A stretch of DNA of 64,000 nucleotides, taken from the NCBI RefSeq assembly GCF_044324875.1, contig NZ_CP172185.1. One strand, written 5' to 3'. The notes under the pieces were generated by a model that was given only the letters and a program-made list of their open reading frames with translations, searched no databases and was not told where the DNA came from. Shown one piece after another: positions 45,165 through 58,958 of this stretch (positions are counted from its first letter, which is position 1; the number at the start of each line of letters is the position of its first letter). This DNA comes from Escherichia coli. GTDB lineage: Bacteria; Pseudomonadota; Gammaproteobacteria; Enterobacterales; Enterobacteriaceae. The translations under genes were made by a program, and so were the position numbers.

Positions 45165-45372
45165 TATAGGTCACATCACCGCACCACACCTGATTTGGCT
45201 CGGTCACGGCGAACTGCCGTTCAAGGTAGTTAGGGATAGCAACATGTTCATGACCACCACGTTTATACCGGTGAGTCGGCTGCTGACAGCTGACCAGCCC
45301 CAGCTCCTTGGCAATTTGACGTCCTTTCAGGCCTGGTGACCCACCTAATAACTCTGAGACTGCCTTCAGCAA
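45165..45372 (-). pseudogene. IS911 OrfB N-terminal fragment (5' exon of the intron insertion)
   Basis: …[36 protein letters not shown] ends one base before the intron 5' GTGTG; upstream IS body is missing and the fragment abuts the hsdR stop. Confidence 0.7.
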
Positions 45373-45386
45373 ACCATCACTCCTTT

Positions 45387-56201: not shown

Positions 56202-56689
56202 TGAAGTGGTCAACAAAAACTGGCCACCGAGTTAGAGTTTTTTCCAGTATCGATTTTCCGATTCGTTTGGTGGTAACCCACCATTATATTCGTGCGGTCT
56301 TAGTGCGCTGTAATATCCAACGATATAGTCCGTTATTGCGTGAGCTGCATCGCTGAAGCTTACATAGCCCGTCGCCGGCACCCATTCGTTCTTCAGACTC
56401 CTGAAGAAGCGCTCCATTGGGCTGTTATCCCAGCAGTTTCCACGCCGACTCATACTCTGCCTGATCCGGTATCTCCACAGTAACTGCCGGAACTGCCTGC
56501 TCGTATAATGACTGCCTTGATCGCTGTGGAACATCACCCCGACGGGCTTACCACGGGTTTCCCATGCCATTTCCAGTGCTTTCATGGTAAGCCTGCTGTC
56601 CGGCGAGAACGACATGGCCCAGCCCACTGGTTTTCTTGCGAACAGGTCGAGAACAACGGCGAGGTACGCCCAGCGCTTACCCGTCCAGA
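56202..56689 (-). mobile_element. IS911 3' part (OrfB C-terminal region and right IR), 3' exon of the group II intron
   Basis: IR TGAAGTGGTCAACAAAAACTGGCCACC at 56202; ORF …[31 protein letters not shown]…[18 protein letters not shown] begins immediately after the intron 3' end. Confidence 0.75.
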
Positions 56690-58958
56690 GTAGAGTAAGA
56701 GGCAGGGCGTAGTCGGACTATTTCCCTGCCTCTCCTCCCCGAACCGGACGTGCACCTTTCAGCGCATCCGGCTCTCCATTTAAATGCTGGCGAACGCCAT
56801 TGCCACTTCTGTAAAGCGCGATGTATACGTGTTTCTGGTCTCCGTCCTCAGATAGGGATTACCTTCGGGTAGCCGCCAGCGGAACAGCTTCTTGCCTTGC
56901 CCCACCAACCGGTACAGTATTTCGCCGCTGAGCTTGCCGTGATTGGTTTTACCAAATAAAACCCACGTTTTGCTCTGACCCGGTTTCGGTGATTTACACC
57001 ACCACCTCATCAGGGAAGCGATACCTGTACGGTATTTGCGGGCCAGCCAGTGAGCCAGCTTCCAGAACACGACACGGTCGATATAACTGAAGACTTTGGC
57101 CTTAAAATCAACGAACTGATAGAACATGGCCCAGCCTTTCAGTTTTCGGTTGAGTTGTTCAGCCATATCGACTTTGCTTTCACTGTAGTTGCCTGATAAC
57201 AGTGCTGTCAGCGATGCGGCGAAGTTTCTGGCTTTCTCCTGCGGGACGTTGAGACCACTCGCATCTCGCCATAACGACTGCGTTTGCGAATGATCCTGTG
57301 CCCCAGAAAGATAAAGCCGTCATTAACATGGGTGATTTTAGTCTTATCCATGTTCAGCCTGAGTTTCAGACTGCCTTCGAGCACACCCCGACACTCCTCC
57401 CTGATGGCTTCCGCCTGTGCTTTGGTGCCTTTGACGATGAGGACAAAATCATCGGCATAGCGGCAGTACGCCACCGCGGGTTTCCACTGCCAGTTTTCTC
57501 TGACCGCCGTACTTCGGCCCCGTTGGATACTGTTATTCCAGTACCACCGATCTTTTCTGGCTTTCCCGCTCAGGTAGCGCTCATGCAGGTATTGATCGAA
57601 CTCATTCAGCATGATGTTCGATAATAGCGGCGATATAACACCGCCCTGTGGCACACCTTCACTGGCCGCCCGAAAGAGACCGACATCGATATGTCCCGCC
57701 TTGATGGTTTTCCACAGCAGAGTCATGAAACGTGCGTCACTGATCCTGCGGCGTACAGCCTTCATCAGCAGTCGATGATGTACGGTGTCGAAGTAACTGG
57801 ACAGGTCGCCTTCAATCACCCAGCGTCCCCGGGTTTCACCACAGTCTGTGAGCTGTAATTTCACCGTGCGGATAGCGTGGTGGACACTGCGCTCAGGCCG
57901 GAAGCCATATGAGAGCGTATGAAAATCACTCTCCCATATCGGCTCCATCGCCATCAGCATGGCCCGCTGAACAATACGATCCCGCAACGTGGGGATACCC
58001 AGTGGTCGCAGTTTGCCGTTGCTTTTAGGGATGTAAACCCGTCTGGCGGGCAAGGGCTGGTAGTGGCCTGAGAGTAATTCATCCCTGAGGATTTGCAGCT
58101 CAACAGCCAGTCTGGCCTGTAGCATTATTTTGTTCACGCCATCAACGCCGGGGGTATGGGCCCCCTTTGATGAAAGCGTGATCCGCGCCGCTTCAGCCAG
58201 CCATTCTGGTTGTGTTATCAGACGCAGCAGCCGTTGAATCCGTAGGGACGGATCGGTGGCTGCCCATGTGGCAAGCTTGCGTTGCATTTCGCTGATTATC
58301 AAAGGTCTTCACCTCGTTAGGTCAGTTAATTCACGTCGCAAACACATTCAAACTGCTTCCCTTCGCCATGTAATGGGCTTTCCCCATCGCGGACTACTAC
58401 GGAAGCTCCGCCAGCCAGCGCGTCATCGGAGCCATGCCCCCTTAACATCCGTCGCTGACCTTCCCCGGTTTACCGGCCTGGACTCAGGCATACTGAGGAG
58501 GCTGCCCGTCGCACTCTTTATCCTTGCTTGCCGCAAGTTGGCAGAAGTCAGCAACGCAAGCGTGATAGACGCTGCTGCCCCGGTGTTTCGTATACATGTC
58601 AAAACACCTTCGACCGGCAGTGCTTACGTATCACTGCCAGTTCCTCCTGCACGGCCTGTCAGATCACGTAGGCCGTGGTGACGTTTTCAACCCACAGAGG
58701 CGGATTAACGGGTTCATGTTCTTCAGCCTTTCAGTACTTAACCTTGAGGATCATCTCGGCTTAGTGATCTCGCCTCAATCCCCGTTGTCAGCGGGTTACA
58801 TCACCCTGCGGGCATGCCGCAGGTCACTGCCGCTCAGGTTCTCCACCGTCACACCCGGTGGGATTGTTGGGTTTCTCATCGTGAGTTACCGGTTCAATAT
58901 TCCAGACAGACTCGCGGTTCATTTAAGCATCCATGCCCGCCCTGAACTCCGGGCACAC
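56690..58958 (-). mobile_element. group II intron (about 2.27 kb) with disrupted intron-encoded protein
   Basis: 5' end GTGTGCCCGG at 58958; domain V GAGCCGGATGCGCTGAAAGGTGCACGTCCGGTTC at 56774-56741; 3' end …CTAC at 56690; internal reverse transcriptase/maturase ORFs. Confidence 0.8.
56780..58302 (-). pseudogene. group II intron reverse transcriptase/maturase, frameshifted
   Basis: RT domains in the 364-aa ORF (57208-58302) and the maturase-like region in a separate 128-aa ORF (56780-57166) in another frame. Confidence 0.7.

Follow-up and report, generated by a model that had tools for sequence, protein, structure and literature searches.

Several described systems resemble parts of the locus discussed here. 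E.c.I4 is a group II intron of bacterial class A, found in E. coli and Shigella, that homes to IS3-family insertion sequences (IS). The literature describes it at fixed positions in IS629, IS911, ISEc16 and ISEc31, and groups it with the En-less class A ORFs. Tandems of IS and intron longer than 3 kb are expected to favour rearrangements (PMC3522654). In composite transposons such as Tn5, Tn9 and Tn10, the cargo is flanked by two IS copies whose relative orientation is fixed and whose inner tips are exact. Type I restriction-modification (RM) systems with an embedded DUF4268/PDC-S11 gene have the gene order hsdM-hsdS-X-hsdR. Finally, SSU5-like phage-plasmids have defence hotspots, one of which lies at the SPFH/DUF7238 position.

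The window analysed is a stretch of 64,000 nucleotides of E. coli DNA (NZ_CP172185.1). The locus lies in a variable, IS-rich part of a genomic island, and contains a Type I RM cassette with the same intron on either side. As in E.c.I4, the intron occupies the fixed position in the transposase gene at homologous codons, the intron-encoded protein consists of reverse transcriptase and maturase only, and the setting is one of islands and plasmids rich in mobile elements. Unlike E.c.I4, the full copy has exons of two different IS elements and a frameshifted ltrA, and the second copy is a 159-nt stump. The bracketing recalls Tn5, Tn9 and Tn10, but there is no complete IS, no cognate pair of outer ends, no target duplication and no second site, and the two arms are distributed differently across genomes. 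The RM cassette has the hsdM-hsdS-X-hsdR order, with X conserved from E. coli to Vibrio, although its hsdS is destroyed. Other genomes show separate histories for the two flanks, and the bracketing is on that ground regarded as debris of recombination, not as a composite transposon that still works.

The 159 nucleotides at 45006-45164 are identical at 159 of 159 positions to 58800-58958, just as the original prediction had it, and such identity cannot be due to chance. The longer copy is a full-length group II intron of 2269 nt (56690-58958, on the minus strand like all features below unless stated otherwise), running from GTGTG to CTAC. It has the 5' GUGYG, the 3' AY and the domain V/VI of this class; the Rfam model RF00029 (Intron_gpII) matches domain V/VI at 56690-56776 with 64.9 bits. 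Its ltrA gene starts near 58287 and is frameshifted by a 1-nt deletion near 57247. The intact homologue in the related locus L002 encodes 502 amino acids with RVT_1 and GIIM domains only, which correspond to the reverse transcriptase and maturase (X) without a DNA endonuclease domain. Both copies lie after the first base of the codon that follows ...TY in orfB, one with an IS629-like and the other with an IS911-family host, at the position in the IS3-family transposase gene given in the literature. Measured against that description, the insertion site and the protein domains point to an intron of E.c.I4 type. A candidate EBS1 (intron nt 263-269, UGUGGGU) could pair with both exon types through G-U pairs.

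In the right arm, upstream of hsdM, the full intron joins halves of two different elements. Its 5' exon (58959-59753) had been taken for IS911, but consists of nt 1-795 of an IS629-like element: the left end, orfA, the frameshift pseudoknot (an ALIL pseudoknot at 59302-59418) and orfB as far as ...ADFTY. Read from 59753 to 58959, it is 100% identical to the other 1310-bp IS629-like copies in the window and about 96% identical to annotated IS629. The exon ends in ...TTACTTACG, after which the intron begins with GTGTG. Only the 3' exon (56202-56689) is an IS911-family half. The predicted unit of intron and IS911 3' exon at 56202-58958 is correct as to family, the nearest named element being ISEc52 (99-100%). 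This exon corresponds to nt 763-1250 of an ISEc52-type element, begins with TCTGGACGGG and ends with an intact right terminal repeat, ...CCACTTCA. It is 99-99.7% identical to annotated ISEc52 copies and has consensus ISEc52 alleles right up to the tip.

The IS tip abuts the region upstream of hsdM (56010-56201), where the IS sits at the TCT triplet 56199-56201. Two 19-nt direct repeats lie in this region, at 56135-56153 and 56159-56177, and homology to Vibrio begins near 56136. The uninterrupted site is preserved in plasmids as ...AAGTCA-TCT-TAAATGAC.

The left arm, downstream of hsdR, is more heavily reduced. Positions 45165-45372 had been described as an N-terminal fragment of IS911 orfB. 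IS911-family orfB is present, but as an internal piece (45165-45293, IS nt approximately 631-762) that forms the 5' exon of the left intron remnant and ends in ...GTGACCTATA directly before intron nt 1; one third of the supposed fragment (45307-45372) belongs to a fifth gene. This wHTH/ATP-binding gene is native to the cassette and truncated in all E. coli forms. Its first 26 codons remain in the window (45294-45372), with 96.6% DNA identity to the start of the Vibrio gene. Thirteen nucleotides, GAGCTGGGGCTGG (45294-45306), are common to the fifth gene and orfB and mark the fusion point, and the IS portion of the flank thus extends to 45293 or up to 45306 (IS nt approximately 618/631-762).

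The intron remnant itself (nt 1-159, 45006-45164, the exact copy of 58800-58958) has neither the candidate exon-binding sites nor any of the catalytic core. Inserted after its nt 159 are nt 1-335 of ISEc52 with the left terminal repeat and the start of orfA (44671-45005), 100% identical to ISEc52 in L005 and joined at the exact IS tip, TGAAGTGG. An IS30 (43600-44670) lies within the ISEc52 piece and is in turn truncated by an IS629-like copy (42290-43600). The later hits by IS629, IS911 and IS30 that had been proposed are real, as insertions of IS629-like, IS911-family and IS30 elements.

Between the arms, the genes lie on the minus strand in the predicted order hsdM-hsdS-X-hsdR, where X encodes a DUF4268 protein. 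The Type I methyltransferase subunit gene hsdM (53550-55973; PADLOC MTase_I, E 1.8e-268) is intact and is annotated in relatives. The restriction subunit gene hsdR (45387-48404; PADLOC REase_I) is also intact, and shows 0-2 differences per 3 kb from plasmid and chromosomal relatives. Such near-identity across replicons indicates recent exchange. Gene X (48419-49582) matches the candidate defence family PDC-S11 of PADLOC (E 4.5e-182) and is kept between hsdS and hsdR in both E. coli and Vibrio. HsdR, HsdM and HsdS are encoded together, with Specificity_I recognised on the intact homologue in L002.

Both methylation and restriction need an intact specificity subunit, and in the window hsdS is broken into three pieces with the middle inverted. 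The N-terminal piece (52837-53543) is collinear with the intact hsdS of L002 and has the target-site duplication (TSD) CAA at its junction. It is followed by an IS629-like copy in inverted orientation (51527-52836, plus strand), by the inverted 612-bp middle of the gene (50915-51526, plus strand; L002 17384 to 16768 matched in reverse), and by a second IS629-like copy near the 3' end (49605-50914). The swapped 3-bp duplications, ACC and CAA, show an inversion by recombination between the two IS629-like copies. Since hsdS is destroyed, the system is unable to recognise its targets. In the window, the cassette is neither functional nor mobile.

Comparison with other E. coli uses a survey of 5,426 complete genomes, the source of all distribution counts. 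The cassette is present in 61 of these genomes, and the bracketed state in five of the 61. The right arm adjoins the cassette in 35 chromosomes, where the left intron piece is usually absent; the junction between the IS tip and the hsdM upstream region is 100% identical in all 35 and occurs in no plasmids. The common left flank, found in 35 records, has no intron at all, and the left junction of IS, intron and ISEc52 is confined to five genomes. These separate distributions (61, 35, 5 and 35) were counted in favour of independent histories of the flanks. Compared with every plasmid, the common chromosomal form retains an additional 46 nt of the fifth gene; this stretch matched no IS or intron and proved to be native fifth-gene sequence. 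Among named IS, the left arm, too, is closest to ISEc52 (99-100%); at the corresponding place most other genomes have an IS911-like copy that is related to ISEc52 at approximately 90% (90.6%).

The chimeric right arm is far more widespread than the cassette. In 205 genomes it occupies one position in the island, next to the same piece of IS1414, and the majority of these genomes have no cassette. Cassette-free arms adjoin other cargo: another Type I RM system, Hhe/DUF262, MADS or lactate genes. Nested deletions starting at the IS tip fit this diversity only in part, as a second RM system is common to ACN001 and strain 165. A stray hsdM N-terminal fragment in BEN5202, a strain whose ltrA and hsdS are intact, was considered as a second hsdM junction but is unrelated to the cassette.

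The search for the cassette in other contexts, suggested by the original prediction, yielded SSU5-like plasmids and Vibrio, though no genome with two complete IS copies. SSU5-like phage-plasmids carry the cassette without the upstream IS, at the SPFH/DUF7238 position, where a related plasmid has a different helicase/methyltransferase system; the window, in contrast, represents the chromosomal-island version. The junction between the fifth gene and orfB is the same as in the window in 19 plasmids, with or without the intron. Among 19 informative plasmids, the intron site of the downstream IS fragment is empty in 14, pM160133_p3 being one example, and occupied in five. A Vibrio plasmid has the cassette without any IS, beside Tn7-like tnsD/tnsE genes and with the fifth gene intact. 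Both IS insertion sites are therefore uninterrupted elsewhere, the upstream one in plasmids and the downstream one in Vibrio. In the window, the DNA touching the cassette is IS911-family on both sides, in the same orientation and with the same intron.

Three further candidates were considered among the plasmid records. The 11.15-kb plasmid module might have been a transposon with a TCT target duplication, but SPFH and DUF7238 are intact neighbours in a plasmid without the cassette; approximately 1 kb was replaced by the cargo, whose left boundary falls 19 nt outside the TCT. A 17.4-kb Salmonella “plasmid”, considered as a free circle, is a linear fragment of the same island. In the 353-kb E. 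coli “plasmid” PN43 the island context is also present.

The occupied plasmid shows how the intron can be acquired. It differs from the empty plasmids at 20 sites, all at fragment positions 243-495 and all matching the ISEc52-type arm, and by fragment position 549 it has plasmid alleles again. This exon co-conversion tract of approximately 250–400 nt indicates that the intron entered the plasmid by homologous recombination. The softer option of the original prediction, a recombination-mobilised module, fits this tract and the chimeric exons. The same features characterize homologous recombination and gene conversion mediated by IS or other repeats, as do the inversion of hsdS between inverted IS copies and the several cargos at one IS tip. 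Unlike in plain IS-mediated recombination, the resident intron lengthens the homology from approximately 1.25 kb to approximately 3.5 kb.

From the observed anatomy, distribution counts, empty sites and co-conversion tract, an order of events and a route joining the right and left flanks in the window lineage can be proposed. The arrangement is probably the product of two independent IS911-family insertions, occupied by the E.c.I4-type intron and afterwards reshuffled and decayed. Two elements would have joined the cassette separately and in the same orientation, the right one by insertion at the TCT triplet 192 nt upstream of hsdM, the left one by fusion to the fifth gene at the 13-nt microhomology. 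Both would have had the fixed orfB site (...D-x-T-Y) targeted by E.c.I4, and both would have become occupied. The intron could have reached them by retrohoming, or else through homologous recombination with an IS that already contained it, as is seen in the plasmid copy. The 5' half of the right arm may then have been swapped for an IS629-like half by recombination between two intron copies. In the left arm, the intron would have been cut after nt 159 by ISEc52, and ISEc52 subsequently by IS30 and an IS629-like copy, and two IS629-like insertions and an inversion would have destroyed hsdS. The 159-nt direct repeat would thus have arisen incidentally, from the intron's occupation of every suitable IS and from subsequent decay. 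How the cassette passed between phage-plasmids and the island is best explained not by transposition of the arms but by homologous recombination, for which IS, intron or cassette sequence common to both would have served.

Some observations count against two independent insertions. TCT follows the IS tip beside hsdM in the chromosome and again beside DUF7238 in the plasmids; had the insertions been independent, the odds of such agreement would be 1 in 64. Nowhere was a left-end junction of the upstream IS (...AAGTCATCT followed by TGAAGTGG or by TGAAGTGGTTTACTG) found; a metagenome scan for TTTAAGTCATCT followed by TGAAGTGG gave two matches, both due to chance and with unrelated flanks. In the two chromosomal forms IS30 interrupts the IS911-family piece at one and the same nucleotide, yet in opposite orientations, and the pieces it hit are IS variants only 90.6% identical between the forms. 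With these conflicts of IS30 orientation and IS911/ISEc52 variants, no fully consistent event order linking the window, common chromosomal and plasmid forms could be reconstructed. Every combination of upstream and downstream junction type is represented (plasmid, window, common and inferred ancestor), which calls for one or more recombinations within the cassette that the sample does not contain.

Another model is a single Campbell-type integration, which appears unlikely. In this model, a circular plasmid module (hsdM upstream region, hsdMSXR, stub, IS fragment, intron and 3' exon) recombined with a resident island arm of IS629-like half, intron and ISEc52. One event would yield both intron repeats and the swapped exons. 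The window is indeed an exact circular permutation of the plasmid module (L003:2885-14030), with the plasmid ends joined as IS tip-TCT-TAAATGAC, as such an event would give, and this also counts against two independent insertions. The resident arm exists without the cassette in approximately 170 genomes, and co-conversion documents recombination through such arms. TCT and the 6-mer TCATCT occur at both plasmid sites, and in a variant of the model the whole phage-plasmid integrated and was later trimmed at this 6-nt microhomology. However, all sampled plasmid IS fragments have an allele patch C, A, C, T at fragment positions 549-567, and all sampled cassette-free island arms have A, C, G at 573, 579 and 602. 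Since cassette-bearing right arms have neither patch, the crossover would be confined to one 5-nt interval of approximately 2.7 kb of homology. Fourteen of the 19 plasmids have no intron to recombine with, the 46 extra nucleotides of the common form cannot be derived from the sampled plasmid form, and the plasmid cargo is not a TSD-bounded unit. Three tip-proximal SNPs in the hybrid right arm seemed to be plasmid-derived, but with more sequences proved to be consensus ISEc52 alleles.

The composite transposon of the original prediction is very improbable. Here, two direct IS911-family copies with introns, now decayed, would have moved the cassette by means of the IS911-family transposase. The predicted direct repeat does exist, with IS911-family DNA on both inner sides in the same orientation. 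An intact right tip lies upstream of hsdM and, in the common form, an intact left tip lies in the fifth gene, an arrangement from which composite transposons start out; moreover, two kinds of replicon carry the cassette. Nevertheless, two complete copies occur in no genome, the bracketed state is limited to five of 61, and the two-armed form is known from one island context. Of the outer ends that such a unit would need, one is an IS629-like left end and the other is missing, the left arm having neither the 3' half nor the right end. Around the unit there are no matching 3-bp repeats, the outer flanks being an IS66-family fragment on the right and ISEc52/IS30 on the left. The transposase gene, orfB, is split by the intron in each arm; cognate transposase might come from intact ISEc52, which exists in many E. 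coli genomes though nowhere in the window. The IS pieces of the common form are different variants (ISEc52-type and the 90.6% relative), and the right arm holds the same island position in its 205 genomes, mostly without the cassette. The plasmid form has no upstream IS, an uninterrupted target site and cargo reaching 19 nt beyond that site; with such boundaries it was not delivered as a two-armed unit, and no identically bounded unit is found at independent sites. Thus the 159-nt duplicate, the intron, the hsd genes and the coordinates of the original prediction stand, as do the direct repeat and the recombination-mobilised option, but the identity of the 5' exon, the extent of the left orfB fragment and the composite transposon do not.

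Two independent insertions followed by reshuffling involve nothing out of the ordinary: only known kinds of element take part, and their arrangement is accounted for by insertion, homing, recombination and decay. Such a rearrangement of a defence cassette is, as far as could be found, not documented in PMC3522654. Mobility of the cassette by recombination is plausible. A broader idea is offered as a rather doubtful suggestion. IS911-family elements occupied by E.c.I4 might serve as portable handles, more than 3 kb long, for recombination that swaps defence cargo between SSU5-like phage-plasmids and the island hotspot, the intron raising the rate of shuffling and not being a passive passenger. 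This suggestion draws on the same IS tip adjoining at least five cargos (this RM system, another Type I RM system, Hhe/DUF262, MADS and lactate genes) and on the movement of the intron between replicons by recombination with exon co-conversion.

The locus is an example of how dispersed IS copies gain a longer stretch of homology from an IS-homing group II intron, which can itself be acquired by recombination with exon co-conversion. It also shows one restriction cassette that is nearly the same in phage-plasmids and a chromosomal island and that recurs, in more distant form, in a Vibrio plasmid, and a transposon-like bracketing repeat that can arise as debris. If the handle idea were true generally, it would add a mechanism for the exchange of cargo among defence islands.

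A base-by-base reading of the minus strand places a full-length group II intron of 2269 nt at 58958->56690, in the right arm of the restriction-modification (RM) cassette upstream of hsdM, with GTGTG at its start and CTAC at its end. Rfam finds a single domain V/VI match in the window, at 56690-56776 on the same strand, together with five IS3-type frameshift pseudoknots. The 3' exon (56689->56202) ends in an IS911-family right terminal repeat (...GTTGACCACTTCA). The 5' exon (59753->58959) is 100% identical to nucleotides 1-795 of a 1310-bp IS629-like element, which has four further copies in the window and shares about 96% identity with annotated IS629. 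With an IS629-like 5' half and an IS911-family 3' half on either side of the intron, the right arm is a chimera.

The original prediction had described two IS911 halves carrying the same intron. Its intron and exon limits are accurate, and its 159-nt duplicate (45006-45164 and 58800-58958) is identical at every base; in a repeat scan, weak similarity continues for 28 more nt. The shared intron and the IS911-family 3' exon also hold, and among reference elements the IS911-family parts best match ISEc52 in the NCBI annotation (99-100%). The description fails at the 5' exon of the full intron, which is IS629-like.

The intron is called E.c.I4-type here by its match to published descriptions, not to an E.c.I4 reference sequence. 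According to a survey of enterobacterial group II introns, E.c.I4 inserts at specific positions in the IS3-like transposases of IS629, IS911, ISEc16 and ISEc31 (PMC3522654). It is counted among the class A ORFs without an endonuclease domain (PMC3552965). Both copies in the window occupy the homologous codon of orfB, one in an IS629-like and one in an IS911-family element. The only domains in the intact homologue of the intron protein are RVT_1 and GIIM. A candidate EBS1 lies at intron nt 263-269 (UGUGGGU), where G-U pairs allow pairing with both 5' exons. Compared with the intact gene of strain BEN5202, ltrA in the window has one substitution and a 1-nt deletion (sites 57990 and 57247), the latter shifting the frame immediately ahead of the maturase domain. 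In the common form of the cassette on chromosomes, the gene instead has an internal stop; the two inactivations are independent.

In the left arm, downstream of hsdR, the sequence ...TGGTGCGGTGATGTGACCTATA| directly precedes intron nucleotides 1-159 (45006-45164, minus strand). The adjoining 45165-45372 had been read as an N-terminal orfB fragment. The IS-only part, 45293->45165 on the minus strand, is indeed orfB but an internal piece of it, and 45372->45307 on the same strand is the start of a fifth cassette gene, with 96.6% DNA identity to a Vibrio gigantis gene. The two are fused at a 13-nt microhomology, GAGCTGGGGCTGG, coding 'KELGL' in both proteins. The proposed later damage by IS629-, IS911-family and IS30 elements is borne out as a nested series: the exact left tip of ISEc52 (TGAAGTGG...; nt 1-335 at 45005->44671, minus strand) adjoins intron nucleotide 159 and truncates the intron, IS30 interrupts ISEc52, and an IS629-like copy interrupts IS30.

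The fifth-gene stub is 46 nt longer in the common left flank, where the left tip of an IS911-like element of 90.6% identity interrupts it. In the chromosomal form of the window (44670/44671) and in the common one (about 12019 in L001, the EH01-18-02 locus), IS30 adjoins the same nucleotide of an IS911-family orfA piece, but by opposite IS30 ends, and the identity of the host IS pieces is only 90.6%. Such a pattern points to an IS30 hotspot or to inversion combined with gene conversion.

The Type I subunits are confirmed by PADLOC, which assigns gene X (DUF4268) to the candidate defence family PDC-S11. From E. coli to Vibrio, gene X keeps its place between hsdS and hsdR (window 48419-49582; 8436-9611 in L020, V. 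gigantis plasmid p1). Among E. coli forms no other part of the cassette diverges as much: it has up to 20 differences in 300 nt, against none in hsdR. In the window hsdS (49592-53543) is inactivated by two IS629-like insertions in inverted orientation, whose 3-bp duplications are ACC and CAA; in BEN5202 it is intact. The 612-bp hsdS segment between the two copies has been flipped by recombination between them, and the duplications are swapped exactly as such recombination predicts. Upstream of hsdM lie two 19-nt direct repeats (TTAAACCTGTGGCGATTCA; window 56135-56177, start-to-start spacing 24 nt), in a leader part common to E. coli forms and absent from Vibrio. They may be an operator or a leftover of an earlier context.

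Across 5,426 complete E. coli genomes, hsdM of the cassette occurs in 61 (39 chromosomes, 22 plasmids). The right junction, from IS tip through TCT to the hsdM upstream sequence, is found 100% identical in 35 chromosomes and 0 plasmids. The common left flank without the intron accounts for 35 records, and the window-type left flank, including the junction of intron nucleotide 159 with ISEc52, for five genomes (AR_0085, GF4, MS 119-7, LR-31 and BEN5202).

All chromosomal copies share a single island context, in which IS events vary by strain. On one side of the cassette are antirestriction, DUF932, Ag43 and GTPase genes, and on the other an IS1414 fragment and raffinose/sucrose-type genes; the junction of this fragment with the IS629-like left end recurs in 205 genomes. 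In cassette-free islands the chimeric arm is again present, 99-99.4% identical, so the arm predates the cassette or is independent of it. At its fixed island position, the IS911-family right tip (...CCACTTCA) has at least five different neighbours (comparison loci L013-L017; window 56199-56206). TCT leads into the RM cassette, TAC into Hhe and two DUF262 genes (cq9, with an inversion), CTA into a MADS system (APEC O2-211) and GTG into lactate-utilisation genes (strains 165 and 210205630); the fifth is a tip-truncated junction to a different Type I system (ACN001). The stretch between the right arm and the GTPase gene behaves as a variable cargo slot.

Other features of the region were also recorded. 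In the same island, mcr-1.1 is inserted a few kb from the cassette in EH01-18-02 (L001 8476-10101) and PN43 (L019 3326-6121), accompanied by ISApl1 in the latter. The window also contains an IS102 RNA match (Rfam RF00124; 12845-13041), a 272-nt inverted repeat pair of 93% identity (13746-14017 and 42019-42290), and an IS66-family region inverted relative to BEN5202 (39488-42290).

The plasmids carrying the cassette belong to the SSU5-like phage-plasmids, with 97.7% identity to phage Cyrano and 83% to SSU5. Here the cassette sits between truncated SPFH and DUF7238 genes. In a relative that lacks the cassette, both genes are intact and next to each other; another relative has a different helicase/methyltransferase system at this position. 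No IS lies upstream of hsdM in the plasmid form. The sequence reads ...TTTAAGTCA-TCT-TAAATGAC..., an uninterrupted version of the chromosomal IS tip-TCT-TAAATGAC, and extends 19 nt further before the backbone begins. A Vibrio gigantis plasmid (L020 1-18435) has the cassette at 93.7% identity without any IS, in the order WYL, hsdM, hsdS, DUF4268, hsdR, ATP-binding protein (wHTH-ATPase) and HTH protein, next to Tn7-like tnsD/tnsE and a SAVED/nucleotidyltransferase (CBASS-like) pair. The native module may therefore comprise five to seven genes, and both E. coli IS attachment sites have uninterrupted counterparts elsewhere. Other genomes provide the different contexts that the original prediction had proposed to look for; among those sampled, the two-armed form occurs only in the island.

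Downstream of hsdR, the plasmid stub is joined to IS nucleotides ~631-1250. This fragment is unbroken in 14 plasmids (...GTGACCTATA|TCTGGACGGG..., an empty homing site, 99.3-99.7% to IS911 copies), holds the full intron in five and is broken by IS110 in two. Empty and occupied versions of one truncated fragment can be compared on sister phage-plasmids (L023, pM160133_p3, 2885-3521; L003, pCPF6-IncFIB, 2885-5790). They differ at 20 positions, all within fragment positions 243-495. At all 20, pCPF6 matches the ISEc52-type arm, and plasmid alleles return by position 549. Some 250-400 nt of 3' exon were thus co-converted along with the intron, which therefore entered this plasmid copy by homologous recombination with ISEc52::intron and not by clean retrohoming. 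A second plasmid, pLR-46_1, is another recombinant: behind the same 5' junction it has an intron variant of 95.5% identity, followed by a 3' exon from a different IS3-family element.

The arrangement in the window probably arose from IS911-family elements that inserted separately on the two sides of the cassette, in direct orientation. Each would have supplied an E.c.I4 homing site, and both sites would have become occupied. The 5' half of the right arm would next have been exchanged with IS629-like::intron, and the left intron would last have been truncated by ISEc52, IS30 and an IS629-like element. A single Campbell-type integration through the arm ranks lower. It would explain why the window and the plasmid module are exact circular permutations of each other, and why TCT follows the IS tip in both contexts, adjoining hsdM in chromosomes (window 56199-56201) and DUF7238 in plasmids (L003 2882-2884). 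However, in the sampled sequences plasmid fragments and cassette-free island arms each have a distinct tip-proximal allele patch, and cassette-bearing arms have neither, which would confine the crossover to five nucleotides. Moreover, most plasmids lack the intron, and the common chromosomal form keeps native sequence found in no plasmid. The shared TCT, part of a 6-mer TCATCT with the IS end, could be coincidence, a target preference or the trace of a circle or deletion junction.

A composite transposon, the other mobile form originally suggested, begins as two direct IS copies around cargo, so it may, though with low probability, have been a past state. Its defining features are all absent from the present state, and it was clearly not as a two-armed unit that the cassette reached the plasmids; composite transposition is not supported. 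Recombination fares better: with the co-conversion tract in pCPF6, homologous recombination is the only mobility mechanism with direct evidence here. Between plasmids and chromosomes, hsdR and the stub are near-identical, and mosaicism affects gene X, hsdS and parts of hsdM. This shows recent movement of the cassette between replicons and recombination inside it.

The bracketing intron repeat, present only in the five sampled genomes and the window, is debris. All the parts belong to known kinds of element, and little is new. The whole is best described as a recombination-shuffled, IS- and intron-scarred, now inactive restriction cassette.
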